Below are positions 1,384-48,128 of a stretch of 64,000 nucleotides of DNA, in pieces (within the stretch, counting starts at the first letter, position 1; every line of letters starts with the position of its first letter). The DNA comes from a virus: IMG/VR virus record IMGVR_UViG_3300032308_001297, positions 32,001 through 96,000 of that record; one strand, written 5' to 3'. The notes below the pieces were generated by a model that searched no databases, was not told where the DNA came from, and saw nothing but the letters and a program-made list of their open reading frames with translations. Both the position numbers and the translations under genes were made by a program.

Positions 1384-1839
1384 ATGAAACTGAATCTGGA
1401 CCATGTTAGAGAATATATTAATGAAACTTCTTTATCGACTAGAATCTATATTGGTTCAGATTCAGCAAGATTTAAAAAAGGTGATGTTTGGTTTGCTGAG
1501 TATGCTACTGTTGTTGTCATTCATTACGATGGCTGTAGAGGTTGTAAAATATTTGGCCAACTAGAAAAAGAGAGAGATTATGATCAGAAACGTGATAAGC
1601 CACGTATGCGTCTTATGAATGAAGTTATAAAGACGGCGCAAATGTATATTGAACTAGAAGAATCAATTGGGCAACGTCACGTAGAAATACATTTGGATAT
1701 TAATCCAAACGAGAAATATGGTTCTCATTGTGTGATTTCAGAAGCAGTAGGTTATATTAAAGGGATGTGCAACGTAACTCCTTTTGTTAAACCAAAAGCC
1801 TTCGCTGCCAGCATAGCGGCCGACCGTTTATTGGCATAA
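1384..1839 (+). CDS. RNase H-like YkuK (DUF458) family protein
   Basis: YIGSDS, YATVVVIH, RLMNEV, HLDIN and KPxAFAASxAADR motifs. Confidence 0.75.
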   Translation: MKLNLDHVREYINETSLSTRIYIGSDSARFKKGDVWFAEYATVVVIHYDGCRGCKIFGQLEKERDYDQKRDKPRMRLMNEVIKTAQMYIELEESIGQRHVEIHLDINPNEKYGSHCVISEAVGYIKGMCNVTPFVKPKAFAASIAADRLLA

Positions 1840-1842
1840 TTA

Positions 1843-1919
1843 GGGAATGTAGCACAATTGGTTAGTGCCGTTCGCTCATAACGGACTGGTTGTAGGTTCG
1901 AGTCCTACCGTTCCCACCA
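1843..1919 (+). tRNA. tRNA with CAT anticodon, probably tRNA-Ile2 (lysidine type)
   Basis: Acceptor GGGAATG/CGTTCCC, anticodon arm GTTCG-CTCATAA-CGGAC, GTTCGAGTC T-loop, encoded CCA; G1-C72 pair argues against initiator. Confidence 0.9.
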
Positions 1920-1936
1920 ATCATAAAGGAAAAAGT

Positions 1937-2350
1937 ATGAAATATATTATTGCACTAGTAGCAATACTAGTAACTACAACTGCGCAAGCAGGGTTTATAG
2001 ATGATCTATTTGGTGGATTCGAACAATCACAGGTTCGAAATTCCAAATATAATAAGCATTCCAAGCATATAAATAATTATTCCACTGGTGGCGGACACAA
2101 CGCCTCGTGGTATAATGACCGGAGCGGACGGACAGCATCCGGTATGCGTCACCATTATGGTGTTGCGCATAAAACCTTACCGTTTGGTGCAAGGGTTTGT
2201 ATCCACAATCCCTCAAATGGTAGGCAAGTAGAAGCCGTTGTAACCGATAGAGGGCCATTCGTCAAAGGAAGAACTATTGACGTCAATCAAAATGTGGCTC
2301 GTGCCCTTGGTTTCTCAGGAACCGCACATCTAAATTACCATCCGTGTTGA
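1937..2350 (+). CDS. RlpA-like (DPBB) lytic transglycosylase with signal peptide
   Basis: Signal peptide MKYIIALVAILVTTTAQA; ASWY, TASG, AHKTLPFG, VTDRGPF, IDV motifs; start moved to 1937 (after the tRNA, AAGGA SD). Confidence 0.85.
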   Translation: MKYIIALVAILVTTTAQAGFIDDLFGGFEQSQVRNSKYNKHSKHINNYSTGGGHNASWYNDRSGRTASGMRHHYGVAHKTLPFGARVCIHNPSNGRQVEAVVTDRGPFVKGRTIDVNQNVARALGFSGTAHLNYHPC

Positions 2351-2385
2351 GGGTCGGTTGCACATAACAGAAAGGTAAATTCCAT

Positions 2386-2913
2386 ATGAAGAAGATTATT
2401 CTAGCTGCGATGACAGCAGCTGCTATGCTTGCATTTGCAAGTTCGGCGGAAGCAAGAGTTCATTACGGCAAACGTAGTCAGTATTCAGCAAATCTCGAAG
2501 AACCAGATACACTAGTATCGATCTTCGATGGTTGGGGGGATGTTACTCCTCAGCTACGTTTTAAAAACAAACGACAGGCTCGCGAATACGGCGAGCGTAG
2601 AGAAGCAAACTATGGTTTTGAGCGTGCCGATGAATCTTATTCGGGTTCAATCGTAGCTCTTGGTCATCAGCTTCAGCATCAGGGTCTCCGTGTGTCTGAG
2701 CATCCATCATTTGGTGGAGTGCACCATGTTCATCATGGCTGGGCGCACTACGCAGGACGTGCGATCGACATAAATGTTGGTCGTGGAGTTTACGAGGCTC
2801 ATTCAGCGTATGCACATAATTTTGATCATCTCGCTGCACAATTAAGGTCAGAGGGATACACAGTCCTTTGGCGTGTTCCTGGTCATTATAACCATATGCA
2901 CGTTCAAAAATAA
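2386..2913 (+). CDS. Exported M15-like (LAS) zinc peptidase
   Basis: Signal peptide ...SSAEA; HYAGRAIDI (H-x6-D) and HYNHMHV (HxH) zinc motifs. Confidence 0.65.
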   Translation: MKKIILAAMTAAAMLAFASSAEARVHYGKRSQYSANLEEPDTLVSIFDGWGDVTPQLRFKNKRQAREYGERREANYGFERADESYSGSIVALGHQLQHQGLRVSEHPSFGGVHHVHHGWAHYAGRAIDINVGRGVYEAHSAYAHNFDHLAAQLRSEGYTVLWRVPGHYNHMHVQK

Positions 2914-2918
2914 CAACG

Positions 2919-2950
2919 AGGGTGGCAATGTCCGTGCCACCCTTTTTCTT
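2919..2950 (+). terminator. Rho-independent terminator
   Basis: AGGGTGGCA-atgtccg-TGCCACCCT followed by TTTTCTT. Confidence 0.8.
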
Positions 2951-2964
2951 AACGGGAGGATAAT

Positions 2965-3531
2965 TTGAATATAGAAAAAGAAAAAGACGCTCAAGATATT
3001 CCTGATATTGAAGCACATCACTATTATCTATTCAATTCTACATTCGATGCAAGTTCTACTGGCGATGCTTTGAAATTCATTCTTGCCCGTAATCTAATAA
3101 AAAAAGATCGCCCGAAGTTTATGAAATTTATCATTAATTCTCCAGGTGGTGAAGTTCCTTCTGCATTTGCTCTCATCGACACGATGAAGGGTTCAAAGAT
3201 TCCGGTATACACATATGGTCTTGGTGAAATTGCTTCTTGTGGTTTACTTACGTTTATGTCTGGAGAAAAAGGACATCGTTACATTACTCGAAATACCGCA
3301 ATTCTATCCCACCAGTTCTCATGGGGATCTATGGGTAAAGAACACGAATTGATGGCATCGGTTAAAGAGTTTAACAATACCAGTCAGCGTATCGTAGATC
3401 ACTATCGTAAATGCACTGGACAGACAGAAGCAGTTATTAAGAAATTTTTACTACCACCAGAAGATGTTTGGCTAACTCCCAAGGAGGCAATAAAATATGG
3501 CATCGCGGATCACATTGTGGATTTTTATTGA
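2965..3531 (+). CDS. clpP: ClpP-like serine protease subunit
   Basis: INSPGGEV, GEIASCG (Ser), ILSHQ (His), EAIKYGIADHI. Confidence 0.85.
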   Translation: MNIEKEKDAQDIPDIEAHHYYLFNSTFDASSTGDALKFILARNLIKKDRPKFMKFIINSPGGEVPSAFALIDTMKGSKIPVYTYGLGEIASCGLLTFMSGEKGHRYITRNTAILSHQFSWGSMGKEHELMASVKEFNNTSQRIVDHYRKCTGQTEAVIKKFLLPPEDVWLTPKEAIKYGIADHIVDFY

Positions 3532-3733
3532 GTGGCTAGCAACTGTAGTTTTGATAGTTGGAGTGGCGCTAACGTCATGGAACATATATCCAGCTAATAT
3601 ATACGTAAGTGCTGCTGGAAATTTACTATGGTTTGTAGTGGGTTGGCTCTGGAGAAAATGGTCTCTTATTACCATCCAAATCATAGTTACTGGTATATAC
3701 TTGGTAGGAATGTGGAAGTATTGGTTCTTATAA
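3497..3733 (+). CDS. Small three-TM membrane protein
   Basis: 78 aa, three hydrophobic segments. Confidence 0.6.
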   Translation: MASRITLWIFIEWLATVVLIVGVALTSWNIYPANIYVSAAGNLLWFVVGWLWRKWSLITIQIIVTGIYLVGMWKYWFL

Positions 3734-3736
3734 ATA
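3729..3736 (+). promoter_or_regulatory. T4-type late promoter
   Basis: Exact TATAAATA 18 nt upstream of ATG 3755. Confidence 0.75.
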
Positions 3737-3754
3737 ATGCAAAAAGGAATCAGT

Positions 3755-4477
3755 ATGCATAACTTCTCAGAATTTATTGCCGAGTTAAAAATAACTCTAC
3801 AGTGCCACGACGAACTCAATCCTAAACTCTGGGATGGCGAGAAACTAAAGCCAGAAGTTCGTAAGGCTCTAATTAAATTCGGAGAAACTTGGGCTGAGTT
3901 CGCAAAGATTCCCAAGAGTATGATTGAAGATATCGTAATGACAGGCGGTAATACTAATTTTAATTATACTTCTAAATCAGATATCGACGTTCATCTTATC
4001 GTAGATCGATCTAAACTTTTTAGTGACGCAAAATTCGTCGAAGAATATCTACAAGATAAAAAGTCTTTATGGACTTTATCACACGATGTTAATGTATATG
4101 GTTATCCTCTAGAACCATACGCCCAAGACAAGAGCATTAAGTATCCAAAAGATCAGGGCGTTTATTCTCTTAAAAACGATGAATGGTTAAAGAAACCTGG
4201 TAAGTGCGAATATGACTATCAGGGAGACAATCTTCTAAAGCAGAAGGTTAAGCATTATATGCATGCTATTGATCATCTAATAAAACATAAGATGGGTGAA
4301 GGTGCAGTTAATCTTTTAAAAACAAAACTAAAAAACATGCGAGCCGCTGGTATCCAGCAATATGGAGAATATTCCAGAGAGAACCTAGTATTCAAAGAGC
4401 TCCGTAACAGAGGCTATCTTGATAAAATGAATGCATACGACAAAGGTGTGCAAGATCAAGAGCTCTCTCTTAAATAA
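3755..4477 (+). CDS. Pol-beta superfamily nucleotidyltransferase with N-terminal capsid-targeting-like sequence
   Basis: MTGGNTNFNYTSKSDIDVH (hG[GS]-x-DxD); start at 3755 (AAGGA SD) gives MHNFSEFIAE. Confidence 0.75.
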   Translation: MHNFSEFIAELKITLQCHDELNPKLWDGEKLKPEVRKALIKFGETWAEFAKIPKSMIEDIVMTGGNTNFNYTSKSDIDVHLIVDRSKLFSDAKFVEEYLQDKKSLWTLSHDVNVYGYPLEPYAQDKSIKYPKDQGVYSLKNDEWLKKPGKCEYDYQGDNLLKQKVKHYMHAIDHLIKHKMGEGAVNLLKTKLKNMRAAGIQQYGEYSRENLVFKELRNRGYLDKMNAYDKGVQDQELSLK

Positions 4478-4480
4478 ATA

Positions 4481-4509
4481 TTGCTTTTCTACTAAAAATA
4501 AGTTATAAT
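4481..4509 (+). promoter_or_regulatory. sigma70-type promoter
   Basis: TTGCTT-17 bp-TATAAT in an intergenic gap. Confidence 0.65.
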
Positions 4510-4534
4510 GTTCTTGACTTAAATGGAGGTTATT

Positions 4535-4654
4535 ATGCATATGAGCAGCGAATTAGAATATATGGTTGAGACAGATATGCTTCTGCTAGGTTATAATCCT
4601 TATAACCCTGCAGATGTTAATAAGTATTGGGAGATTTATTTCTATGGCTATTGA
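4535..4654 (+). CDS. 39-aa hypothetical protein
   Basis: GGAGG SD; MHMSSELEYMVETDMLLLGYNPYNPADVNKYWEIYFYGY*. Confidence 0.55.
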   Translation: MHMSSELEYMVETDMLLLGYNPYNPADVNKYWEIYFYGY

Positions 4655-4919
4655 GATTTATTCGAAGAACAATTGCTCTTTTTGCGAACAAGCAAAACAA
4701 ATCTTACGCACACACGGAAAAGATTATATCGAGTATAAGCTCGACGAAGATTTCACACGCGAGATCCTTCTATCAAAGTTTCCAGAAGCTAAGACGTTTC
4801 CTGTGATTGTTCTCGACGGTTTCAATATCGGTGGGTTTGAACAATTGAAGCGCCATCTCACAGAAGAGACTTCAGACCCTAGAAAGATTCTATTGGAAGA
4901 TAATTACTACGGAGCATAA
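4644..4919 (+). CDS. Glutaredoxin (NrdC-like)
   Basis: CSFC active site, TFPVI, IGGF; start moved to ATG 4644. Confidence 0.85.
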   Translation: MAIEIYSKNNCSFCEQAKQILRTHGKDYIEYKLDEDFTREILLSKFPEAKTFPVIVLDGFNIGGFEQLKRHLTEETSDPRKILLEDNYYGA

Positions 4920-4922
4920 ATT

Positions 4923-5204
4923 ATGGCTACTTATGATCGCGACACTCTGATGAAAGATTTGCAGAAAAATGTTGTTGCAGTTTATTTCACAAAAGTTAAT
5001 GGCGAAAAACGAGAGATGCGTTGCACTCTCATGCCAGGTTTGCTTCCTCCAACATATGTCCAAGAAGAAGCAGATGTAAAGAAATTCCATGATGAGAACA
5101 GAGAAGTTCTTGCTGTGTGGGATGTGATGAAGGGTGGATGGCGTTCGTTTCGCATCGACTCTATAGAGTATGTTCAGGTCTTAGATCCGTATCAATACTT
5201 TTAA
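4923..5204 (+). CDS. SH3-like/WYL_2 (DUF2693-like) conserved T4-like protein
   Basis: FTKVNGEKREMRCTL and GWRSFRIDS motifs. Confidence 0.7.
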   Translation: MATYDRDTLMKDLQKNVVAVYFTKVNGEKREMRCTLMPGLLPPTYVQEEADVKKFHDENREVLAVWDVMKGGWRSFRIDSIEYVQVLDPYQYF

Positions 5205-5214
5205 GGAGATGTAA

Positions 5215-5577
5215 ATGAACGAAAACGCTTACTGGGGTTATCACCTAATCGTTAATGCGGGAGGCTGCAACAAGGCTGCTATTACCGATCATGGAACGAT
5301 TTACGATTTCGCCAAGGAACTTGTAGAGAAAATAGAAATGGTGGCTTATGGAGAGCCACAGATTGTTTTCTTTGGAGAAGGTAATAAAGAAGGTTACACT
5401 CTTGTTCAATTAATAGAAACAAGTAACATTTGTGCGCATTTTGTTAACGAAACTGGTGATATGTACCTGGATGTTTTTTCGTGTAAAACATTCGATAAGG
5501 ATGTTGTCTTAAATCTTGTTGATGATTATTTCCTACCGTCAAGGGTAAATACTACATACCTCGAAAGACAAGCATAA
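5215..5577 (+). CDS. Pyruvoyl-dependent AdoMet decarboxylase (SpeD)-like protein
   Basis: GYHLI, GYTLVQLIETSNICAH, YLDVFSCK. Confidence 0.75.
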   Translation: MNENAYWGYHLIVNAGGCNKAAITDHGTIYDFAKELVEKIEMVAYGEPQIVFFGEGNKEGYTLVQLIETSNICAHFVNETGDMYLDVFSCKTFDKDVVLNLVDDYFLPSRVNTTYLERQA

Positions 5578-5592
5578 CAACTGGAGTTTGTA

Positions 5593-6423
5593 ATGAATAT
5601 TATTTGGTCTGATTTTGATGCCGATTCAGAATGGTCTGTGAAACAACGCGAAGCAAAACAAGTAAATGGTCCAGAATATTGGCCAACGATGCGGGAAGTG
5701 TTCAAGCATGATTGTGCTACGCTCCCGCTAAATCGTTTTCGTTTATGGGCTAGTATCCATAACGTTCCTCTTGTAACTCAATATCGCACTTCTCGTTTCT
5801 TTGGCGAAGCATTTTATCATGCTTATCGCGACTCAGAAATCTATGAGGCTCTAGTAGAAAATTGGATTGGTATACCAGAAGCAATGGCTGGTGCACTTCG
5901 TCCAACTAATGATTTTGATACTTCAACACAGCGTATTCAGAACCTTGGTCATCTTATGATTACTGGGTTTGGTAAAGAGAAGCTACGTTCAATCAAGTCA
6001 ATTGTTGAGATTGGTGCTGGATATGGTGATATGTGTTCGCTTATCCACGATCTTGGATTCCAAGGCGAATATACTATCGTTGACATTCCAGAGACTCAGC
6101 CAGTTCAAGAGTTCTATCTTGGCAAGCAGGGCATCACGCCTAAGTGGTCATTTGAAGATGATAATGTAACACATGCTGATCTAGTTATTGCTACATGGTC
6201 ATTGTCTGAGACTCCACTCGAATATCGTGCGCAGCTGATGCCAAAGATTGATCAGTCAAAGAACTGGTTAATCATGGCGCAGTCTGAAGTTTTTGGTCAG
6301 AAAGTCAATGACGAATACTTCACTAACTTCTTCAAGGATAAGAACCTAACAAAGATTCCTCTTGGTTCTGAAGATATGAAGCAGTGGGATGGAGACAATA
6401 ATTATTATGTTGTGAGGGATTAA
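5593..6423 (+). CDS. Putative sugar O-methyltransferase (class I SAM)
   Basis: IVEIGAGYG, YTIVDIPE, DLVIATWSLSE motifs. Confidence 0.7.
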   Translation: MNIIWSDFDADSEWSVKQREAKQVNGPEYWPTMREVFKHDCATLPLNRFRLWASIHNVPLVTQYRTSRFFGEAFYHAYRDSEIYEALVENWIGIPEAMAGALRPTNDFDTSTQRIQNLGHLMITGFGKEKLRSIKSIVEIGAGYGDMCSLIHDLGFQGEYTIVDIPETQPVQEFYLGKQGITPKWSFEDDNVTHADLVIATWSLSETPLEYRAQLMPKIDQSKNWLIMAQSEVFGQKVNDEYFTNFFKDKNLTKIPLGSEDMKQWDGDNNYYVVRD

Positions 6424-6932
6424 TGCTTAATAATGGTTCAACGCCATCAACTGATATGTATTATGGATGTACCGAAAAAAATGTTTGGCGTCCGGGTAGC
6501 GGTATTACATTCGGCACCTTTGATCTATTACATTCTGGTCATATTACTATGCTTGAGCAGTGTAGAAGTCAGTGCGATTATTTAATTGTTGGGTTACAAT
6601 CTGACCCAACAATCGATCGTCCTGATACTAAGAACCGTCCAGTTCAGTCTCTTTTTGAAAGATATGCGCAGTTATCTTCTAGCCGCTTTGTCGACCAAAT
6701 TATTCCCTATGATACAGAAGAGGACTTGGCAAATATGCTAAGTATCCTGGATGTTAAAAAGAGATTCCTTGGCGAAGAATATAATGGCCAGTTTATCTAT
6801 GCTGGTGATGTTTGCAAGCTAAGAAATATTGAATTAGTTTACATCGAACGCAAACACAATTATTCATCATCAAATCTAAGGACCAGAGTATATGCTAGAG
6901 AGTTGTCAAAACGCACCAATAATCCATCTTGA
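6423..6932 (+). CDS. Cytidylyltransferase family (TagD/HldE-II-like) nucleotidyltransferase
   Basis: GTFDLLHSGH (HxGH), LIVGL, RKHNYSSSNLR. Confidence 0.85.
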   Translation: MLNNGSTPSTDMYYGCTEKNVWRPGSGITFGTFDLLHSGHITMLEQCRSQCDYLIVGLQSDPTIDRPDTKNRPVQSLFERYAQLSSSRFVDQIIPYDTEEDLANMLSILDVKKRFLGEEYNGQFIYAGDVCKLRNIELVYIERKHNYSSSNLRTRVYARELSKRTNNPS

Positions 6933-7446
6933 ATATTTTGCACAGCAAGCACAAAATCTTGAAGGTCTAATATTAGAATTTGGTGTAGCCAAAGGCAGAA
7001 CAATCACAAAGATCGCTCAAACATTACCAGAAAGAACGGTATATGGATTTGATTGGTTTCAAGGGTTGCCAGAAGATTGGGCAAATGGATATATGGCTGG
7101 GCATTTTGCTTGCGATAAACCAACAGATCTACCAGAGAACGTAGTAATCGTAGAAGGATTATTCAAGAAAACAGTTCCAGGATTTATTAAAGAACATAAA
7201 GATGAGAAGGTTGCTTTCATGCATGTTGATTGCGACATCTATTCATCCGCCAAATATGTTCTTGATAAGTTCGAAAAGAAATTCCAAGATGGTTCAATTG
7301 TTGTCTTTGATGAGTTTATCATATATAATAATTATCAACATCATGAATGGAAAGCATGGCATGAGTTCTTAGAAAAAACTAAGTATAATTACGAAGTGCT
7401 CGGAAGAGCTCACCAAGAAAGTGTAGCATTTAGAATTTACAAGTGA
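6892..7446 (+). CDS. TylF/MycF-like O-methyltransferase
   Basis: LEFGVAKG, YGFDWFQGLPEDW, HVDCDIYSS, VFDE. Confidence 0.8.
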   Translation: MLESCQNAPIIHLEYFAQQAQNLEGLILEFGVAKGRTITKIAQTLPERTVYGFDWFQGLPEDWANGYMAGHFACDKPTDLPENVVIVEGLFKKTVPGFIKEHKDEKVAFMHVDCDIYSSAKYVLDKFEKKFQDGSIVVFDEFIIYNNYQHHEWKAWHEFLEKTKYNYEVLGRAHQESVAFRIYK

Positions 7447-7453
7447 GGATATT

Positions 7454-8038
7454 ATGTCATTTACTGATCAGTATTTTAATGAAGTAGTAGATATTGCCAA
7501 TGAAATCGATAAAAACAAAATTGAGATCATGGCTCGTGGTCTTGCAGACATCACTGCACATGCTGGGCGTGTGTTTGTGCTTGGCGTGGGTGGTAGCGCT
7601 GGTAACGCTTCCCATATGGTTAATGATCTTCGAAAGCTATGTGGGATCGAAGCATACTGCCCCACAGACAACGTTCCAGAACTTACAGCTAGAACGAACG
7701 ACGAAGGGTTTGACACCGTTTTCGAAGGATATCTCAGAGTAAGTAATCTAAACAAGTATGATTGTATCTTTATTCTATCAGTTGGTGGTGGTAATAAAGA
7801 AAAGAATGTATCAGTTGGGCTAGTAAAGGCAATTGATTATGCGAATTATGTTGGCGCTCATGTTTACGGTATTGTCGGCAAGGCAGATGGATACACTGCT
7901 GAAAAAGGGAATTGTGTGGTGGTTATTCCTCAGCTGGCTCCAGACAGAGTCACACCACACTCAGAAGCATTCCAAGGAACAGTCTGGCATTGTTTAGTTT
8001 CTAATCCTGTTTTGCAGAAAAATAAAACAAAATGGTAA
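7454..8038 (+). CDS. gmhA: Sedoheptulose-7-phosphate isomerase (SIS domain)
   Basis: GVGGSAGNASH, LTARTNDEG, SVGGG, PHSE. Confidence 0.8.
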   Translation: MSFTDQYFNEVVDIANEIDKNKIEIMARGLADITAHAGRVFVLGVGGSAGNASHMVNDLRKLCGIEAYCPTDNVPELTARTNDEGFDTVFEGYLRVSNLNKYDCIFILSVGGGNKEKNVSVGLVKAIDYANYVGAHVYGIVGKADGYTAEKGNCVVVIPQLAPDRVTPHSEAFQGTVWHCLVSNPVLQKNKTKW

Positions 8039-14252: not shown

Positions 14253-14996
14253 GTGTCAAAAGATAAAAAGAAAAGATATCGTTCAATCTTTATATCTGAT
14301 GTGCACCTTGGAACCCGTCACTCTAACGCAGAAAAGCTATTAGAATTTCTTAAATCCACTGAAGCTGATAGGTATTATCTTATCGGTGATATTATAGATG
14401 GTTGGATGATGAGAAAGAAAGTTTATTGGCCACAAGAGCACAACAATGTGGTTCAATTCTTTTTGAAACAATCTAAAAAAGATATTAAAGTTATTTACAT
14501 AACAGGAAACCATGATGAATTCCTCAGAGAATACTCAGGAACTGTCATGGGTAACATTCAGATAGTAGATAATATTATACACACTGGTGTTGATGGTAAA
14601 AGATATCTTGTTATTCATGGAGATCAGTTTGATCTTGTAACAATGAATGCTAAATGGCTTGCTATGATTGGTGGTTGGTTATATGATAGAATGATTGATT
14701 TTAATAGACATCTACAATCTATATACAATATACTGGGAATTAATGGATTTTCTCTTTCTGCTTGGGCAAAATCTAGCGTAAAAGAAGCAGTAAACTTTAT
14801 CGGCGATTACGAAAAAGTAGTTGCTGATGCTGCCAAAAGGAGATGCGTCGATGGGGTGGTTTGCGGCCATATTCATCATGCTAATATATGTTCTTTTGAT
14901 AATATTGAATACATGAACTGTGGCGATTGGGTAGAATCATGCACTGCAATCGTAGAATACGACAATGGAAAGTTTGAGATTATAAGGAAACTATAA
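14253..14996 (+). CDS. plcP: PlcP-like (LpxH2-type) metallophosphoesterase/phospholipase C
   Basis: ISDVHLG, GDIIDGW, WPQEHN, GNHDEFLR, HGDQFD, CGHIH, NCGDWVESCTA. Confidence 0.8.
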   Translation: MSKDKKKRYRSIFISDVHLGTRHSNAEKLLEFLKSTEADRYYLIGDIIDGWMMRKKVYWPQEHNNVVQFFLKQSKKDIKVIYITGNHDEFLREYSGTVMGNIQIVDNIIHTGVDGKRYLVIHGDQFDLVTMNAKWLAMIGGWLYDRMIDFNRHLQSIYNILGINGFSLSAWAKSSVKEAVNFIGDYEKVVADAAKRRCVDGVVCGHIHHANICSFDNIEYMNCGDWVESCTAIVEYDNGKFEIIRKL

Positions 14997-15985
14997 TGAA
15001 TATTACTATTTTTACTGATGCGTGGGATCCGCAAATCAATGGTGTTGTTACAACATTAAAAACAACTGTCAAACATCTTGAGTCCCGTGGACATGAAGTT
15101 AAAGTAATTCATCCTGGTCTTTATAAATTGACTATTCCATTACAACCATCAACTGGCATTTTCATGCCAGTTTTGCCTATGGGTATTGCTGACGAAGAAG
15201 TAAAGAATGCTGACAAGATTCACATCGCAACAGAAGGAGCAATAGGTCTTGCCGCTAGATATAGCTGTAAAAAGTACAAGAAGTCTTTTACAACTTCCTT
15301 TCACACAAAATATCCGGAATACGTTAAGATACATACTGGTATTTCACCAAGAGTTAGCGGTGAGTATTTTCGTTGGTTCCATAGAGACAGCAGTGCTGTT
15401 ATGGTTACAACCCCCAGTATGGTTGATTACTGTAAGGAGTTGGATATCAAACATCTGAAAATTTGGTCTCGTGGAGTGGATACAAATCTATTCCATCCAA
15501 TGTATCCGAAACCAAAGGGTGAATTTATTTCTGCTGTTTATTGTGGTAGAATATCTGCAGAAAAGAATCTCGAAGCATTTCTTTCTATTGATAATCCAAC
15601 GATCACCAAAACTCTTATTGGCGATGGACCGCAATTAGAAGAATACAAAGCAAAATATCCAGATGCTATATTCCTTGGTAAAATGGATGCTAAAAGAATT
15701 GCTGCAGAGTTACCTAAACATGATGTGTTTGCTTGGCCTTCGCTAACAGATACATTTGGACTTGTTGTGTTGGAAGGAATGGCTTGTGGACTACCTGTTG
15801 CTGCATTCGATAACGAAGTTAATCGTTACATTATTGAAGACTCTGTTTCTGGTTTCTTAGTAAAAGAACATTTAGAATTAGCTATTGAAGATGCTATACA
15901 TTTAAAACCAGAAGATGCAGTAGCAAGAGCAGCTAAGTTCTCTTGGGAAGCAGCAACCGATCAATTCTTGGAGAATATAGCATGA
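14996..15985 (+). CDS. GT4 glycosyltransferase, Agt-like glycosyl-diacylglycerol synthase
   Basis: TDAWDPQINGVVTTL, HIATEGAIG, FHTKYPEY, WSRGVD, GRISAEKN, TDTFGLVVLEGMACG; coupled to the plcP-like gene. Confidence 0.75.
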   Translation: MNITIFTDAWDPQINGVVTTLKTTVKHLESRGHEVKVIHPGLYKLTIPLQPSTGIFMPVLPMGIADEEVKNADKIHIATEGAIGLAARYSCKKYKKSFTTSFHTKYPEYVKIHTGISPRVSGEYFRWFHRDSSAVMVTTPSMVDYCKELDIKHLKIWSRGVDTNLFHPMYPKPKGEFISAVYCGRISAEKNLEAFLSIDNPTITKTLIGDGPQLEEYKAKYPDAIFLGKMDAKRIAAELPKHDVFAWPSLTDTFGLVVLEGMACGLPVAAFDNEVNRYIIEDSVSGFLVKEHLELAIEDAIHLKPEDAVARAAKFSWEAATDQFLENIA

Positions 15986-16635
15986 CAGGAAGAACATTCT
16001 TCGTTCTTGACTATTGGCCAAAACCAGAGTATGGTAAGATTTATAACTTTCATTATGTAACAGTAGATGGATCAATGCCAGATCTACAAGTAAAGTTTGT
16101 TCTTTCTGATGATAGAAAAGATATTCTTTATGTCGACTACGACGCCGAAGGTAAGTGGGTTGATACTTGGTATATGAGATACATTCCAGGTCAAGGATTA
16201 ATGGAATGGAGAGACGACTATCCTACAGGCGGATGGTTTACTAAACGTAAAAAGATTGTTATGAATCCTGGCATTGGCTGGGGAGAGACCGGAACAATTG
16301 GTAGCTTCTATCAGAACTTTCCTAAGATGGATCCATTATCTTCTAATCCTCCGCAGTTTATGTCTGGAACTCAAACTGTTATTTGGGAGTCATGGTTACC
16401 AGAAATGATCCTCAGCAACGGGGATAAGTATACTGATATTGTAACAATGGTCTACCAGCAGTCTTGGGGAAAGAAAACTTCTGGCGCTCGTTATTATATG
16501 GCGAAAGGAATTGGTCCTATCGCAGTTCAGTGGATTGCTCCTCATCCATTCAAACCAGGACAGTTTGTCACTACGGCTAGAATGGATGCGAAATATACGG
16601 TGACTTATGGCACGCAGAAAGATATTCAAACATAA
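15982..16635 (+). CDS. Hypothetical aromatic-rich protein
   Basis: GGAG SD, ATG 15982; Trp/Tyr-rich beta pattern, YYMAKGIGP motif. Confidence 0.65.
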   Translation: MTGRTFFVLDYWPKPEYGKIYNFHYVTVDGSMPDLQVKFVLSDDRKDILYVDYDAEGKWVDTWYMRYIPGQGLMEWRDDYPTGGWFTKRKKIVMNPGIGWGETGTIGSFYQNFPKMDPLSSNPPQFMSGTQTVIWESWLPEMILSNGDKYTDIVTMVYQQSWGKKTSGARYYMAKGIGPIAVQWIAPHPFKPGQFVTTARMDAKYTVTYGTQKDIQT

Positions 16636-17269
16636 TCTAGTTCCAGAAGTAGAGATTACTACTGAAACAATTGACGGTAAAAGACACTATGTGTTACCGA
16701 GTGGAGAAAAATTTCGCTCGGTAACAACTGTATTGTCAGACGCTTTAGATAAAACAGCACTACTAGAGTGGAGAAAGAAAGTTGGTGAGGAAGAAGCTCA
16801 AAAGATTTCTACACAAGCTGCTCGTCGTGGAACCGCCGTACATTCCATCGCAGAGCGTTATGTGCTCAATGAAGAGGAATATCTTCGGGATTCTATGCCT
16901 TCTGGAATTGATTCTTTTAAAAGCATTCAAACGCTTTTAGATAAACATGTAGATAACATTCTTGGTATTGAGTTACCTTTGTATTCTACTGTTTTAAAAA
17001 CAGCAGGAAGATGCGATCTTATTGCAGAGTTTGATGGCGTTCCTTCTATAATTGATTTTAAAACAAGTCGCAGATTAAAAGAGGAAAGCTGGATTGAGTC
17101 CTACTTCCTACAAACAACTGTCTATTCTATGATGTTTGAGTATATGTATAAAATAGAAATTCCCCAGATCGCAATACTAATAGCAGTGGATCATGAAGAG
17201 CCACAACTATTTGTAAAGGATCGTGGAGAATATGTTAATAGAGTTATAGAGATCTTTACTGCCAGCTAA
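16607..17269 (+). CDS. PD-(D/E)xK exonuclease
   Basis: SVTTVL, RGTAVH, AGRCDLI, IIDFKTS, YFLQ. Confidence 0.85.
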   Translation: MARRKIFKHNLVPEVEITTETIDGKRHYVLPSGEKFRSVTTVLSDALDKTALLEWRKKVGEEEAQKISTQAARRGTAVHSIAERYVLNEEEYLRDSMPSGIDSFKSIQTLLDKHVDNILGIELPLYSTVLKTAGRCDLIAEFDGVPSIIDFKTSRRLKEESWIESYFLQTTVYSMMFEYMYKIEIPQIAILIAVDHEEPQLFVKDRGEYVNRVIEIFTAS

Positions 17270-17672
17270 CGCCAAACATTCCTTCTTCGTCTGTAGAGTA
17301 TACTGTTTTTTTGATACCAAAATGCTCAATGGCTTTAGAACACCCAGAGCAAGGTTCGGCCAAACCGCTAACCCAGTTTACATCTCCCTTATTAGTTTTC
17401 TTGACACGATAAACATAAAGGGTTGCATCTTTTAGATCCTCTTGTTCTACGATCCTCAATGCATTGATGATACAATCTACCTCTGCATGTTTAAAAATCG
17501 CATCGTTGTTCTTAGAAAATCTTTTCTGCAAAGGATGAGATTTATCGGAGTTAAGACCAACAGAAATTACCTCGTTACGAAGAACGAGGCAAGCAGCAAG
17601 TTTCATTCTCATATTATTGTTAATGGCAATTCGACGAACGAAAGCCATATATTTCAAATCACGTGAATTCAT
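17256..17672 (-). CDS. Cytidine/deoxycytidylate deaminase family protein
   Basis: HAE and PCSGC zinc motifs. Confidence 0.8.
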   Translation of the reverse strand: MNSRDLKYMAFVRRIAINNNMRMKLAACLVLRNEVISVGLNSDKSHPLQKRFSKNNDAIFKHAEVDCIINALRIVEQEDLKDATLYVYRVKKTNKGDVNWVSGLAEPCSGCSKAIEHFGIKKTVYSTDEEGMFGVSWQ

Positions 17673-18249
17673 CAGAGTATCCTAAATTGCGGAAGTCTCG
17701 AGCATAGATAATTCGAACTCTATCAATCAAATAAGAAGTATAGTCTTTATAATACTGTTCTTTCGAGTAAGAGCCAACATTTATTTTTGGTAAGGCTATA
17801 TTCATATCTCTCTCTAAATCTGAGATGTTTTCAAATCTATAGATCTTATCCATTTCTGTTTTACCATCTTCAAAGATATAAAAAGATTGATCATATTTAA
17901 TAAGCGGAGTTTTCTCCGTAGCCATTCCTTGTTCTATCATAGATAAAAAGTTTTTGAAAGATATGCTAGACGTATTAAATCTGCGAAAATGATGATAATA
18001 ACTATACGCTCTCGTAAAAGGATTTCTTACGACAGAGAATTTAAATGTGTCAGAAGGTATGTTATTATTCTGTTTAATTACATGGTAAGGATCATGACCG
18101 ATATGCCATGTCCTTACCCATTTATCTTTACCTATAGATTCTCTTAATGCAATCCCTGCAGTTTTAGGAATGTGCACAAAAAGAAAATTGGAGCGGGAGA
18201 TGGGAATCGAACCCACTACGAACAGCTTGGAAGGCTGACACTCTACCAA
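17659..18249 (-). CDS. Sulfotransferase family 2 protein (start uncertain; N-terminus overlaps tRNA-Gly)
   Basis: FVHIPKTAG (5'-PSB), VRNPFTRAYSYY, RFE, YARDF..LGY. Confidence 0.75.
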   Translation of the reverse strand: MVECQPSKLFVVGSIPISRSNFLFVHIPKTAGIALRESIGKDKWVRTWHIGHDPYHVIKQNNNIPSDTFKFSVVRNPFTRAYSYYHHFRRFNTSSISFKNFLSMIEQGMATEKTPLIKYDQSFYIFEDGKTEMDKIYRFENISDLERDMNIALPKINVGSYSKEQYYKDYTSYLIDRVRIIYARDFRNLGYSDEFT

Positions 18250-31582: not shown

Positions 31583-32099
31583 CACCTTTATACTCGACGA
31601 AACATTCGATACATCCACCTTTACCTTTACGATTCATTTGTTTCCAAATATACGAATCAATATTATCCATATCATTTTCTAGAATGTCTGGTCTCAATAG
31701 AACAAACATTGCAAGCTGTGCTGTTTTCTGTCTGCAGATCATTTTAAATCCGTATTTCTCATAGAATGGAACAGCGTCTAGTTCTGCGGACACTCTGAAA
31801 TAATCAGCCTTATTATCAAAAGCGTATTGTAATGCGTAGTCACAGAGAAGAGATCCAACTCCTCTGCCACGAAACTTATAGAAGGTATGAAGTAATTGTA
31901 GATTAGCTACTAATGGTTGACGTTTAGAAACAGTAACAACGATAGCACCAGCTAACTCGTCGCCGTCCCAAGCTCCCATCAATAGACTCCAATCATTCAT
32001 CATATCACATTTGGATACGAATCTCTTAGCGAATCTATCTTCTTTTTTATCTGTTAGATGAGCAACAAATTCCTCACGACTGGTTTGTCGCAACTTCAT
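31569..32099 (-). CDS. GNAT acetyltransferase
   Basis: RGRGVGS acetyl-CoA motif, AVPFYEKYGF; start moved to ATG 32099. Confidence 0.85.
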   Translation of the reverse strand: MKLRQTSREEFVAHLTDKKEDRFAKRFVSKCDMMNDWSLLMGAWDGDELAGAIVVTVSKRQPLVANLQLLHTFYKFRGRGVGSLLCDYALQYAFDNKADYFRVSAELDAVPFYEKYGFKMICRQKTAQLAMFVLLRPDILENDMDNIDSYIWKQMNRKGKGGCIECFVEYKGVENF

Positions 32100-40903: not shown

Positions 40904-41057
40904 TATGTACTTTCACAACAGCTGCTGTAACGTAATCACAAATAGCGTCCAGTCTAATTAATAGATTAGCTTTCTCATTTTCTCGAATGTTTTTGTCATT
41001 CAATCTATTAACGATGTCCTGAATGTTAACAGGAACTAGATGATTATTCTTCATCAT
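40878..41057 (-). CDS. 59-aa hypothetical protein
   Basis: MMKNNHLVPVNIQDIV...RLDAICDY...; fills the gap between 55 and 47. Confidence 0.5.
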   Translation of the reverse strand: MMKNNHLVPVNIQDIVNRLNDKNIRENEKANLLIRLDAICDYVTAAVVKVHNENRTFNR

Positions 41058-41601
41058 TTTCTTCTACCTCTGAAAATTTTTCTACTCCAACAAGTTTACT
41101 AGGTTTTTTGTTTTTAGTCAACTTATCTTCATAAGAACGTACGATGTCTGCTGAATAGTCGTTTGATTTCAAATGTGTAGCGTGATTAGCGTCTTCGGAA
41201 ATCTCAGAGAATAAATGAGAGTTCTCGAAATTTTTATGTTTAATATAAGTCTGTTTCTTTTCTTTCTGAATTCTACGAAGAAAAGCGTTCCATGCTATCT
41301 GAGTAAAATAAGCGAATGGGTTATTTGTTTTATCAGGATTAAAATTGTCCACGGCTGCAATACAATCCATGATGCCATCGCTAATCATATCTTGTTTGTA
41401 TGTATAACCAGAGAAATTTGGTTTCTTTGCAAGGTTATTACAAATCAAAAGAATAGATTCTCCAATATATTTCGGGACTATCGGTTCCTCTTTTTCGGAT
41501 TCAATAGCCTCTTTCAATTCATTTTTATAATGAATCATCGCTCCATAGAGAGTTTTGTTATTGATATAATTGGTTTTTCTCTTTGGTTTTGTCTCGCTCA
41601 T
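41044..41601 (-). CDS. 55: Late-transcription sigma factor gp55
   Basis: NYINNK, KPNFSGYTY, DMISDG, NPFAYFTQI, AFLRRIQKEKKQ. Confidence 0.95.
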   Translation of the reverse strand: MSETKPKRKTNYINNKTLYGAMIHYKNELKEAIESEKEEPIVPKYIGESILLICNNLAKKPNFSGYTYKQDMISDGIMDCIAAVDNFNPDKTNNPFAYFTQIAWNAFLRRIQKEKKQTYIKHKNFENSHLFSEISEDANHATHLKSNDYSADIVRSYEDKLTKNKKPSKLVGVEKFSEVEENDEE

Positions 41602-44834: not shown

Positions 44835-46223
44835 TTACATAAGGTTGTTGACGATAATTCTGCGATAGTACTTGTTAGTAGTAATCGCACGACGTCCAAG
44901 ACCTGGGTTAGTACCTTCGGCGAATGGATTTGCAACCATGCCGTAACGAGTCTTAAAGCCGATCTTTGGCTGGAATGAGCTCTGATCAACTGCACGAACC
45001 ATCTGTAGTGGAACGTATGGGCAGTAGAAAAGGCCAGCGTCGAAGGCTGATGAACCCTTATAGCCAACAGTGAGATAGTTACCACCGAGAGCGTAAGGAT
45101 CGATATAAACCTTTAGACGACCATTGAGAACACCAGCGAAAGTGTTACCAGTATCATCAACCTGAAGGTTGTTTGAGTTAAGGGCAGGAGCGTAGTCGAG
45201 AACACCAGCCATCTGTAGAGCAGAAGCAACGTCTGAAGAACAGATAACGATGTTACCTTTACCACGACGAGTCTGCTTAGCAATAGCGTTAGCTTCGCGT
45301 TCTAGCTGGAACATAAGACCCTTGAACTTCTCAACTGACCAACGACCGTTTGAATCAGTGTCAAGATCGAAGACACCAGCAGTAGTTGTATTTTCCTGAG
45401 CGCCAGCTTCAGCAGTGATGTTGATAGTACGAACAACTTCACGGTTGATTTCGGCTAGGATTTCAGCTGAAAGAATGTTAGCTAGTTCTGTCTCAGCGTC
45501 TAGACCATGGATTGCTTTAAGATCCTGAGCAAGTTCCATAGTGTACTCAGCTTTTAGAGCACGAGTGTTAGCAGAAACAGTAACCTTCTCGATTGAGAAA
45601 GCCATTTCTGGGAATGCAGTATTAGCATCAGTTCCGAGAGCTTCAGCCTGGAAAGTTGACATACCATAACCAGTGTTATAAGTGTTAACAGCAGTTAGTG
45701 GTGATGTGTTAGTAGCACCTGGAATAGTTCCAACGTGCTTCTGACCAAGAGTGTTAGCTCCTGAAGTAACAGAAGAGAACTGAGTGTTAACTTCGTTGTA
45801 GAAAGTTTCTGCACCAGCATTGTTGAATGACTGAGTAGCAGCATTTCCGCCAGTAGCATAACGTGAACGCATTGCGAAGATAAGGCCAGTTGGGCCAGTC
45901 ATTGGCTGAACGCCGCAGATATCGTAAGCAATTAGGTTAGGCATTGCACGACGAACTAGGGAGATAAGAACAGGATCGAAAGTATCGATACCGCCAGTTC
46001 CCTGAGTTGAAGATGAAGCGCCCATAAGGTTGTTATGAACGAATGATGATGTCTCAGTTAGAGTCTGATAATCACCATGAGCGGATGACTCACGAAGAGC
46101 CTTTTCTGTGTTCTCAAGCATAACAGCAGTTACTGAACGGCGATGCTGGTCCTTAATAGTACCAAGAGCGTCGTGGTCAAGAACTGGTGCCCACTTGTTT
46201 TGAATTTCCTCAGCTAGATACAT
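44835..46223 (-). CDS. 23: Major capsid protein gp23
   Basis: KWAPVL, LVRRAMPNLIAYDICGVQPMTGPTGLIFAMR, RALKAEY, YCPYVPL, FQPKIGFKTRYG. Confidence 0.98.
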   Translation of the reverse strand: MYLAEEIQNKWAPVLDHDALGTIKDQHRRSVTAVMLENTEKALRESSAHGDYQTLTETSSFVHNNLMGASSSTQGTGGIDTFDPVLISLVRRAMPNLIAYDICGVQPMTGPTGLIFAMRSRYATGGNAATQSFNNAGAETFYNEVNTQFSSVTSGANTLGQKHVGTIPGATNTSPLTAVNTYNTGYGMSTFQAEALGTDANTAFPEMAFSIEKVTVSANTRALKAEYTMELAQDLKAIHGLDAETELANILSAEILAEINREVVRTINITAEAGAQENTTTAGVFDLDTDSNGRWSVEKFKGLMFQLEREANAIAKQTRRGKGNIVICSSDVASALQMAGVLDYAPALNSNNLQVDDTGNTFAGVLNGRLKVYIDPYALGGNYLTVGYKGSSAFDAGLFYCPYVPLQMVRAVDQSSFQPKIGFKTRYGMVANPFAEGTNPGLGRRAITTNKYYRRIIVNNLM

Positions 46224-46269: not shown

Positions 46270-47421
46270 TTACTTTTTAACTGTTCTTGCGAGAGCCTGA
46301 ACGTAACGATTGACTGATGGGTCAACAGTTACAGTTGATTCAGTAATCTCGCCTTCAAAAGTTTCTTCTTCAATGTTTGAAGAGCCGACAGTATTGTCAC
46401 TCTTGAAATAATTTTCTTTAACGATCATAAGTTTCTTAGCATAAGTTTCTAGATCGCCGTCAAACTCAATACCTTCAGCAAGCGCCGAAAATTTTTCTTT
46501 CTGAGTCAGTGCAAGATCAGAAGAAATTTCTTCGAAAATATCAGTTGCTTTTGATTCTACAATAAGGTTCTTTAGTTCAACATTTTCAGAAATTACTTCA
46601 TCCATTTTTTCTTCTAGAGCAGCAACTTTTTCTGCCATTGCTTCTAGAACTTCAACCTTATCCTCTGGAACATTGATGTAATGCTCAGCGAATAAGCTCT
46701 TCAATCCATCAATAAACTCTTCAGCGAGTTCATTGCGTAGAGTTGATTCGATAGCTACTTCATTTTCTCTCATCCATTGTTCAACACAATAATCAAGATA
46801 AGTGTCGAGCTTTGATGTTACGCTTTCACCGAAGTTAGCAATTTCTTCTTGTAGCTTTGTTTCAAACTCTTCTTCGAGACGAGTCTGTTCAGCAATAACT
46901 CTAGCTGATACAGCTGCTTCGAATAGTGTTGAAACGTTTTCTTTAAATTCTTCTGAAAGATCTTGTCCGTTAAACATTTCTTCGATGTCTTCTTTGACAT
47001 TTAGTTTTGGCATTGGATCTTTAGTCTTTGGACCTTTACCAGTTTTCATATCAACTGTTGCTTGATTGGCGGCTGACTTATCGCCAACACCCCAATCCTT
47101 ACCAGGACCATATAGTGACTGAACCTGATTGAAGAAACCAGTCCATTCATCTTTGTTCATATTAGCAATCATGTTTGTTACATGAGAGATAGCGCCAATC
47201 TTTGAAATTGGATCTGACTGACGAGCTTTTGGATGAAGTGAAGATGCAGCGAGTGTTTCCTCGTCCATTTTTTCTTTCTTCTCTTTCTTTTCTTTTTTCT
47301 CTGATTTAGAAGACTCTTCCTCTTCTTCCTCTTTTTCCTCTTCTTCTTGCTTTCCACCAGACTCGTATTTTGCTTCGTCTAGGTTAGCAACGTCTTCGAG
47401 ATCGAATTCTTGGTTATCCAT
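46270..47421 (-). CDS. 22: Prohead core scaffold gp22
   Basis: LSEEFK...FEAAV, YLDY.VEQW..ENEVAIE, LFAEHYI.VP, KENYF. Confidence 0.9.
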   Translation of the reverse strand: MDNQEFDLEDVANLDEAKYESGGKQEEEEKEEEEEESSKSEKKEKKEKKEKMDEETLAASSLHPKARQSDPISKIGAISHVTNMIANMNKDEWTGFFNQVQSLYGPGKDWGVGDKSAANQATVDMKTGKGPKTKDPMPKLNVKEDIEEMFNGQDLSEEFKENVSTLFEAAVSARVIAEQTRLEEEFETKLQEEIANFGESVTSKLDTYLDYCVEQWMRENEVAIESTLRNELAEEFIDGLKSLFAEHYINVPEDKVEVLEAMAEKVAALEEKMDEVISENVELKNLIVESKATDIFEEISSDLALTQKEKFSALAEGIEFDGDLETYAKKLMIVKENYFKSDNTVGSSNIEEETFEGEITESTVTVDPSVNRYVQALARTVKK

Positions 47422-47453: not shown

Positions 47454-47461
47454 TATTTATA
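47454..47461 (-). promoter_or_regulatory. T4-type late promoter (gene 22)
   Basis: TATAAATA. Confidence 0.75.
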
Positions 47462-48128
47462 ATAATTTAGATTTTGCTGTTAGAGAAGCTAGATAGTCCT
47501 CAAAAATAGCAAGTTTCTGTTCTTCTAACTGTGCTTTTGAAATTTTATTCACAGTCTTTTTAATTTCATGAAGTTTTTCTTCATGCCAAGTGTTCTTAAC
47601 TGGATCAAAAATCCATTCAACGTTTTCCATAATACCATTTACGAAACATCCAGGACCACTTGGGTCTGAAACAATATCAACTGTTGATAGCTTGAAGTCT
47701 GATTGAACGACCATGACACCTTTTTCTTCTTTCAAAGAACCCATGCCACGTGTTGAAACGCCAAGCTGACCACCTGATTCTAGGAGACCTCTAGCAATTT
47801 CACCCATTGGTGTTGATGTAATTTTAGCCTTACCGTTTACATAATTACCATCCCATGACAGTTCTGTGATGATATGTGAAACACGGTCTAGGTTAATTGT
47901 TGGACCAGAAGGATGATTCAATTCGCCGAAAGCTCTTTTAGCTTGAACAACTTCTCTAAGATATCTAGAAACTTCGTTTTCTAGGATATCTTTTTTATAC
48001 ATTCTGCCGTTCTTATTTTTTTCTTCTGCAGTCATAAAGCGACCAGTAATATAATGGTGCTTATTACCGTCTTCAGATCTCTCAGTAATATATTGAGTAT
48101 CTTCGTTTAATTCGGCGATGAGTTTCAT
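47457..48128 (-). CDS. 21: Prohead protease gp21
   Basis: NKNGRMY, GELNHP, RVSH, GVSTRGMGSL, DIVSDPS. Confidence 0.95.
   Translation of the reverse strand: MKLIAELNEDTQYITERSEDGNKHHYITGRFMTAEEKNKNGRMYKKDILENEVSRYLREVVQAKRAFGELNHPSGPTINLDRVSHIITELSWDGNYVNGKAKITSTPMGEIARGLLESGGQLGVSTRGMGSLKEEKGVMVVQSDFKLSTVDIVSDPSGPGCFVNGIMENVEWIFDPVKNTWHEEKLHEIKKTVNKISKAQLEEQKLAIFEDYLASLTAKSKLL

Follow-up and report, generated by a model that had tools for sequence, protein, structure and literature searches.

Here we describe a gene for a nucleotidyltransferase (NTase) in the genome of an uncultured T4-like phage and the evidence that its product is a candidate cargo enzyme of the phage head. The window, that is, the whole stretch of DNA analysed, comprises 64,000 nucleotides, positions 32,001 to 96,000 of the IMG/VR virus record IMGVR_UViG_3300032308_001297. 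The source contig is 162,364 bp long with 36.9% G+C and belongs to a distant aquatic T4-like phage, a lake relative of T4. The NTase open reading frame (ORF) runs on the plus strand from 3755 to 4474, encodes 240 amino acids and starts MHNFSEFIAELKITLQCH; with its stop codon it ends at 4477. It combines a late promoter, a ten-residue N-terminal peptide resembling the capsid-targeting sequence (CTS) of T4 and a Pol-beta-type catalytic motif, laid out as follows.

3718-3729, plus strand: 5′ arm of a hairpin, GUAUUGGUUCUU, present on read-through transcripts only (minimum-free-energy fold)
3729-3736, plus strand: T4-type late promoter TATAAATA, an exact match, in the hairpin loop
3744-3748, plus strand: Shine-Dalgarno (SD) sequence AAGGA, six bases before ATG 3755 and inside the hairpin 3′ arm (read from the sequence)
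3745-3757, plus strand: 3′ arm of the hairpin, over the SD and the AUG (minimum-free-energy fold)
3755-3784, plus strand: CTS-like tag MHNFSEFIAE, ending in a predicted I-A-E prohead-protease site (comparison with the T4 tag)
3785-4477, plus strand: predicted mature NTase, residues 11-240 plus the stop codon, about 26.8 kDa, isoelectric point (pI) 8.7
3944-3994, plus strand: Pol-beta catalytic motif, G64-G65-N66 (3944-3952) followed by S75-D76-I77-D78-V79-H80 (3977-3994)
4112-4114, plus strand: E120 in YPLEPYAQ, on strand 117-125 of the structural model; likely the third carboxylate that binds metal

Gene start and late-expression signals

A mechanical reading of the frame begins at ATG 3737 and yields MQKGIS ahead of MHNF, which hides the tag, as an earlier note on this DNA had pointed out. 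ATG 3755 is the better start because ATG 3737 has no ribosome-binding site and is not conserved, reading ATC in a 94%-identical relative (locus L009), and because homologues start at the position equivalent to ATG 3755. The note's other direct readings also hold: the exact TATAAATA on the plus strand, the SD followed by ATG 3755 and MHNFSEFIAE-LK, and the Pol-beta motif GGN...SDIDVH, whose key residues are conserved in alignments of 34 and 115 sequences.

The informative aspect of TATAAATA is its position and conservation rather than its count, which in the window shows no enrichment (9 observed, 6.65 expected). Ten of the 21 copies in the genome lie at most 50 nt upstream of an ORF start, including those of the tail tube, major capsid protein, scaffold and sheath genes, where the distance is 16-44 nt. 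Among IMG/VR loci of NTase homologues, 33 of 80 carry the exact motif within 50 nt of the start, against about 2% of the 1,778 other ORFs at these loci, and several further loci carry the cyanophage variant CTAAATA. Counted over unique loci, the survey of orthologues that the earlier note had proposed finds TATAAATA upstream in 29 of 73. The motif and the tag also occur together (17 of 24 against 12 of 49 unique NTase loci, p=3e-4, with relatedness ignored).

Minimum-free-energy folding of the leader predicts a hairpin of 12 bp, four of them G-U, in which the two arms pair (3718-3729 with 3745-3756), the SD and AUG are buried and TATAAATA sits in the loop. A transcript starting just downstream of TATAAATA is consequently without the 5′ arm. 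The same design, built from other arm sequences, is found in five relatives (L010, L011, L013, L014 and L015), and a second clade (L062-L077) has a strong terminator hairpin directly before TATAAATA; both designs are predicted to restrict the NTase gene to late expression. RNAalifold found no consensus structure in seven upstream regions because the stems lie at differing offsets from TATAAATA, leaving the alignment out of register, and the evidence for the hairpin is thus that of single-sequence folds. In T4 genes e and soc, a hairpin reportedly masks the SD on early read-through RNA, with the late promoter inside the hairpin (McPheeters et al. 1986; Macdonald et al. 1984). The NTase leader follows this plan, with the promoter in the loop between a 5′ arm upstream of TATAAATA and a 3′ arm that contains the SD and AUG, and the plan recurs among relatives; the leader departs from T4 in its weaker stem, its modest statistics and its standing as a predicted fold.

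Directly upstream, at 3497-3733 on the plus strand, lies a 78-amino-acid ORF with two to three hydrophobic stretches and no PHROG match, which could encode a holin-like or small membrane protein. Its TAA stop overlaps TATAAATA.

The nucleotidyltransferase and its family

By its sequence the window protein is classed as a Pol-beta-superfamily nucleotidyltransferase. It belongs to phrog_36119, a PHROG without assigned function (E 8e-79), and the Pol-beta signature, hG[GS] followed after 9-13 residues by [DE]h[DE]h, is satisfied by MTGGN and SDIDVH. G64 and D76 are invariant and D78 and E120 at least 90% conserved in the 115-sequence alignment (A2); G65 and E120 are invariant in the 34-sequence alignment (A1). 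The window protein itself scores 14.4 bits against NTP_transf_2, under the 21-bit cut-off (E 0.05). Among the 115 family members, Pfam matches 95 to NTP_transf_2 (best E 3.7e-6), 36 to MTPAP-like and 26 to Polbeta.

An AlphaFold2 model, with a predicted local distance difference test score (pLDDT) of 93, consists of a minimal NTase domain (residues ~16-147) and a four-helix C-terminal bundle. An independent structure aligner placed residues 16-147 with the minimal NTases 1ylq (Z 6.7) and 2rff (Z 6.5) and with FAM46 (Z 6.0-6.2), and Foldseek returned 2rff and the MNT structure 8xeh with a probability of 0.87-0.89. The comparison with NTase classes suggested by the earlier note accordingly produced matches to the minimal NTase and MNT fold, and the scores were too weak for assignment to the CD-NTases or to any other class. 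We describe the modelled fold as a minimal NTase plus helical bundle with no close solved relative, all structural matches being weak. The family profile gave nothing significant among PDB sequences (the best hit, ICT1 at E 0.036, we take as spurious); BFVD returned only uncharacterised phage proteins and the ESM Atlas only viral hypotheticals. None of Foldseek, the independent aligner, BFVD and the ESM Atlas gave a functional assignment beyond the Pol-beta fold. A homologue in DSL-LC02 carries the GenBank name aminoglycoside NTase, for which we found nothing in support; Adenyl_transf matches one of the 115 family members, weakly.

The family is large, with 3,735 clusters at 50% identity (E ≤0.001), and its Atlas neighbours are nearly all viral. 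Members occur in T4-like cyanophages, Caulobacter phage Cr30, Maribacter phages and several megaphages. Some are fused to phage lysozyme, to GNAT acetyltransferases, to DUF5661 or to an N-terminal domain of about 160 amino acids. The last kind, of about 400 amino acids (P0059, P0043, P0089 and others), has an N-terminal domain of the form DPRFKARMAKI...YDIPYLAGYS...IYIDRH...HEYSEKA, joined to the NTase via L-x-E-TK; this domain had no Pfam match, and tblastn found no homologue of it in the source genome.

The N-terminal tag and virion proteins

In T4 the CTS is MKTYQEFIAE and is cut off once (Mullaney and Black 1996, as cited in PMC3012670, PMC5694885 and bioRxiv 10.1101/2021.01.19.427310). 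We read this peptide directly from ipII and ipIII in NC_000866, as the earlier note had given it. MHNFSEFIAE has equal length, is identical at six of ten positions (M1, E6, F7, I8, A9 and E10) and has F for Y4. Its end, I8-A9-E10, fits the I/L-x-E site of the prohead protease; the T4 enzyme, gp21, prefers I/LxE sites (PMC12991175). The model gives a mean pLDDT of 52 over residues 1-10 against at least 92 afterwards. The conserved family core begins L-[QE]-Y-H-x-x-L-N-P-K-L-W, and 13 members start right at this core, with MKFH..LNPKLW. The low scores over residues 1-10 and these 13 starts indicate that the tag is an appendage outside the modelled fold. A signal peptide or membrane anchor was rejected as a reading of the N-terminus, the peptide being short, with acidic residues and no hydrophobic run.

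The tag is a recurrent property of the family. Among the 197 members with a short N-terminus, 77 (strict) to 93 (loose), or about 40%, begin with the pattern M-x-x-[FY]-x-x-[FY]-[LI]-x-E, and some homologues, starting MKTYRGFFKE or MKTYKGFFKE, stand nearer still to T4. More broadly, 207 of the 265 members have [LIVMF]xE in the nine residues that precede the conserved core. In the fusion protein P0127 the tag occurs twice, once at the start (MNPFLTYLTE) and again, as KPFIRFLTE, in an internal linker that ends in LxE and leads straight into the NTase domain; the L-x-E-TK of the 400-amino-acid forms likewise stands at the junction before the NTase. Conservation among homologues, which the earlier note had made a point on which its proposal depended, is therefore present in the family and extends to unrelated proteins.

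At the loci of relatives the same 10-mer tag stands on unrelated proteins: six genes in L027 and others in L025, L030, L038, L039, L045 and L061. When the tag pattern was back-translated, it gave one to four hits in each of five phage genomes and none in the reversed-pattern control; in T4 it matched ipII, ipIII and gene 61.1. The source genome itself has three consecutive genes with CTS-like starts outside the window (14359-17739; L089:2359-5739).

First gene: a 428-amino-acid protein that fits no known family, MLNFSTFLLE; TATAAATA stands 27 nt upstream
Second gene: a DUF6267/phrog_455 protein, MRIDFKTFLIE
Third gene: a cytidylyltransferase, MLKFNNYFLTE, homologous to ORF154 of cyanophage S-CREM2

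They are followed by a 648-amino-acid virion structural protein and then by a protein with DUF5661, DUF5824 and a weak match to a phiKZ internal head protein, and together these genes look like a candidate packaged-protein cluster. At L027 (IMGVR_UViG_3300020161_001528, 1628-7500), at least six neighbouring unrelated genes start M-[KIR]-S-F-[KR]-x-[YF]-[LI]-x-E, one of them an NTase-lysozyme fusion of 511 amino acids; this arrangement is reminiscent of the hypervariable locus for internal proteins in T-even phages.

A link to actual particles comes from S-CREM2 (OR473000.1), a T4-like cyanophage for which a mass-spectrometric proteome of CsCl-purified virions has been published (PMC10665884, Table 3). 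Its ORF156 (126012-126725) is the NTase orthologue, with 48% identity over 98% of the length, and was detected in the virions with six unique peptides (PMC10665884, Table 3), under the label 'hypothetical protein' and not as an NTase. A full-text literature search for 'capsid targeting sequence' did not return this paper. We scanned the whole S-CREM2 genome for the tag and found six plausible gene starts.

ORF6, SAM (S-adenosylmethionine) hydrolase: MKDFDSFLEE, TATAAATA upstream, in the virion proteome
ORF13: MKDLHSFLTE, GATAAATA upstream, in the virion proteome
ORF14, kinase: (M)KRFDAFLTE, in the virion proteome
ORF136: MQTFSMFFSE, GATAAATA upstream, in the virion proteome
ORF154, cytidylyltransferase: MKNFSSFLTE, TATAAATA upstream, in the virion proteome
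55-amino-acid ORF: the sixth tagged start, not among the five tagged virion proteins

Five of the six tagged starts thus belong to virion proteins, against 47 of the 215 other annotated features (p=0.003, with relatedness ignored). The untagged neighbours gp5, gp7, gp8 and gp11 are absent from the virion proteome, and replication proteins are not in its list. In S-CRM01 a kinase gene starts MISFDQFLSE, and a putative kinase was identified in S-CRM01 virions, as reported second-hand by PMC10665884. The Cas9-like virion protein ORF12 of S-CREM2 has a tag-like stretch, LRFASFMAE, at residues 17-25.

Proposed loading into the head and the alternatives

The window encodes the machinery that such a tag would need, in a T4-type morphogenesis module on the minus strand that also includes tail tube, sheath and large terminase genes. 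The NTase gene lies on the opposite strand among auxiliary genes.

49429-51240, minus strand: portal gene
47457-48128, minus strand: gp21-type prohead protease, the predicted processing enzyme of the tag (phrog_207, E 6e-74)
46270-47421, minus strand: gp22-type scaffolding protein, the presumed docking surface for the tag in the prohead core (phrog_237, E 2e-71; TATAAATA 32 nt upstream)
44835-46223, minus strand: gp23-type major capsid protein
41044-41601, minus strand: gp55-type late sigma factor, the predicted reader of TATAAATA (tblastn with S-CREM2 gp55: 42% identity, E 1e-37, genome positions 73188-73589)

The gp21-type protease is 37% identical to T4 gp21 and conserves the catalytic His and Ser as H85 and S140.

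We favour, with a confidence somewhat above even, a head-internal cargo enzyme that is expressed late only, directed by its tag, processed by the prohead protease and delivered with the DNA. Transcription directed by gp55 would start just downstream of TATAAATA and confine expression to late infection, and any early read-through RNA would fold into the hairpin and bury the SD and AUG. Acting like the T4 CTS, MHNFSEFIAE would bring the protein into the prohead's scaffolding core during assembly, where the gp21-type protease would cut after I-A-E10 and leave the mature enzyme, with the N-terminus LKITLQ..., inside the head. The enzyme would then exit together with the DNA and nucleotidylate some macromolecule of the next host, most likely at a protein hydroxyl or at the 3′ end of an RNA, in the service of host takeover or counter-defence. 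Packaging in the head is the step we hold probable, and cleavage, ejection and early action are each less so. Targeting by the tag in the source phage, cleavage after E10, ejection and all of the proposed substrates are what we infer from the features described above. The interpretation of the earlier note, a head-loaded NTase under a late promoter, appears supported by these features. All three points that the note had named as able to refute it came out favourably: the start codon, the conservation of the motif and, by way of the orthologue, virion presence, ORF156 being found in purified virions, with a tag shortened to MKKLISE.

CTS-bearing internal head proteins are known from T4-type phages; the link to a virion proteome and the design for late-only expression are new here. 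The NTase resembles the T4 internal proteins IPII, IPIII and IPI in its ten-residue N-terminal peptide with M1, aromatic residues at 4 and 7, an aliphatic residue at 8 and Glu at 10, ending I-A-E. As in T4, the same peptide stands on unrelated proteins, gp21-, gp22- and gp23-type head genes are present, the gene is located away from the head module, and about 800 bp upstream there is a gene for a probably lytic M15-type peptidase (the T4 order is e, ipIII, ipII). The cargo differs, being a 27-kDa enzyme rather than a small protein without an enzyme fold, as does the expression design, late-only here, whereas the T4 genes have no TATAAATA within 60 nt; and the source phage is a distant aquatic one, in which targeting and cleavage are predicted. 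T4 Alt is an ADP-ribosyltransferase carried in the head; gp21 removes its N-terminal propeptide, and it is injected along with the DNA (PMC5694885; PMC5512222). If the favoured reading is true, the NTase would be likewise a packaged, N-terminally processed, host-modifying enzyme with a nucleotide-derived substrate, although the two are not homologous, one being an ADP-ribosyltransferase using NAD and the other a Pol-beta NTase using a nucleoside triphosphate (NTP). Pol-beta NTases are among the predicted capsid-delivered protein modifiers of phage 'polyvalent proteins' (Iyer et al. 2017, PMC5512222). Relatives in the NTase family share with these their fusions, to lysozyme, GNAT, DUF5661 or a second tagged module; the window protein, in contrast, is single-domain, and its predicted processing is by the prohead protease at LxE rather than by an embedded metallopeptidase.

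Several observations weigh against head loading as we propose it. In the orthologues of cultured cyanophages (S-CREM2, S-B68, S-N03 and S-CRM01) the N-terminus is shortened to MKKLISE-LK, TATAAATA is lacking, and translation is coupled to that of the upstream gene. In S-CREM2 that gene is ORF155, whose product is likewise virion-associated (PMC10665884), and a full tag is evidently not needed for the detection of ORF156 in virions. As its authors caution, that proteome may contain abundant non-structural proteins that co-purified with the virions (PMC10665884), and it was sensitive enough to include the protease and the scaffold. The virion evidence, moreover, concerns proteins of cultured relatives, the source phage being represented by sequence only. 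The use of AT-rich codons where translation starts could account in part for an N-terminus rich in Lys, Asn, Phe and Ile. In the capsid protein of the source phage, SFVHN aligns with the T4 gp23 cleavage site FLTE65, an LTE standing six residues upstream. T4 gp61.1 (54 amino acids, NC_000866 18966-19130) starts MKTFKEFIKE, a near-copy of the ipII/ipIII tag, and is annotated as hypothetical only. A late promoter does not mark out CTS proteins in general, for T4 ipII and ipIII have no TATAAATA within 60 nt (NC_000866). The hairpin is modest when compared with shuffled sequences, 38 of 200 equalling it in the window, and only that of L011 stands out (2 of 200).

Some of these points would suit an ordinary late cytoplasmic enzyme that stays unpackaged and acts in the producing cell, for instance on RNA of the phage or the host, on proteins of the virion or in connection with lysis, with an N-terminus that is an amphipathic or AT-rich start feature resembling a CTS. 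Late genes of T4 do include unpackaged proteins, lysozyme e having two TATAAATA upstream; members of the NTase family are fused or adjacent to lysozymes and endolysins (P0123, L027, L030 and the Cr30 neighbour); in cultured cyanophages the orthologues lack a late promoter and are surrounded by replication genes; and co-purification is conceded by the proteome's authors (PMC10665884). We nevertheless consider this account unlikely, since the tag is specific in position and length, with aromatic residues at 4 and 7, an aliphatic one at 8 and Glu at 10, and is not a matter of mere composition, and since the reversed-pattern controls in five genomes yielded no hits. Tagged proteins, including enzymes unexpected in virions, are enriched in S-CREM2 virions from which their untagged neighbours are missing, and the lack of replication proteins in that proteome also speaks against a bystander enzyme. 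A packaged protein could instead act within the particle or during assembly, for example by nucleotidylating head proteins or phage DNA ends or bases, or serve as a basic, DNA-condensing internal protein, and the mildly basic pI of the mature NTase, 8.7, is of the kind reported for T4 internal proteins. Such a role seems to us improbable to a greater degree: invariance of the catalytic residues across thousands of clusters points to a real enzyme and away from mere DNA condensation, NTPs are by reasoning not expected inside a filled head, and T4's internal proteins as well as Alt are ejected together with the DNA (PMC5512222).

Structure bears on a further alternative, a CD-NTase- or OAS-like signal synthase or decoy that interferes with CBASS-type immunity (cyclic-oligonucleotide-based antiphage signalling), packaged or not. 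The best Foldseek hits in the PDB are CdnE, CdnC and CdnD (E 1e-4 to 1e-2, probability up to 0.98), and they and the model are both two-lobed, with an NTase core and a helical bundle. These matches have TM-scores of only 0.2-0.3 and root-mean-square deviations (rmsd) above 13 A, the best of them, CdnE 6wt9, combining E 1.2e-4 with a TM-score of 0.24 and an rmsd of 15 A, and aminoglycoside NTases score about equally (AAD(9), AadA and ANT(6): E 1e-3 to 5e-2, TM-score 0.27-0.30). CD-NTases are absent from the top rows of the independent aligner, which offers only minimal NTases and generic helical bundles at Z ≤7.5; there is no CD-NTase Pfam match, and no significant sequence match to solved structures. 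A signal synthase or decoy is therefore the reading we hold least plausible, and we give it little credence.

If head loading of the NTase is correct, the head cargo of T4-like phages would be predictable from a 10-residue tag and a late promoter in thousands of uncultured aquatic phages, and an uncharacterised NTase would be among the commonest head cargoes. It would also provide an entry point to early, transcription-independent host takeover or counter-defence beyond E. coli models, and would account for the SAM hydrolase, kinases and cytidylyltransferases that recur in cyanophage virion proteomes. A bolder, joint version is doubtful in our judgement. In it, the T4 CTS would be a conserved, sequence-readable label across aquatic T4-like phages, marking a set of head-loaded enzymes (NTase, NMNAT-like cytidylyltransferase, SAM hydrolase, kinases and DUF6267 proteins), and the NTase family, with its more than 3,700 clusters, would be a widespread injected counter-defence enzyme that nucleotidylates a host immune component early, for instance through MNT-like AMPylation of a HEPN RNase, or through RNA tailing or blocking.

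The auxiliary genes around the NTase encode an RlpA-like lipoprotein, a secreted M15-type peptidase, a ClpP-like protease, the 78-amino-acid membrane protein, a glutaredoxin and sugar-pathway enzymes. Megablast of 3400-4700 against the phage collection found no match, and tblastn in the source genome found no homologue of S-CREM2 ORF155, ORF160, the SAM hydrolase, the kinase or the Cas9-like protein. A tRNA-Met gene at 1843-1919 (plus strand) is overlapped by a mechanical GTG-start ORF (1865-2350), and the true start of the lipoprotein gene is most likely ATG 1937. The RlpA-like lipoprotein (phrog_7930) and then the secreted protein occupy 1937-2913 (plus strand), about 800 bp upstream of the tagged gene; the latter has a signal-peptide-like N-terminus and the H..D...HxH motif typical of M15-type peptidoglycan peptidases. 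Lytic-type genes before the NTase recall the T4 order e, ipIII, ipII and also that of Cr30, lytic enzyme then NTase. The ClpP-like serine protease at 2965-3531 (plus strand) has PHROG hits to head maturation and ATP-dependent proteases; it is remote from the head module and additional to the gp21-type prohead protease.

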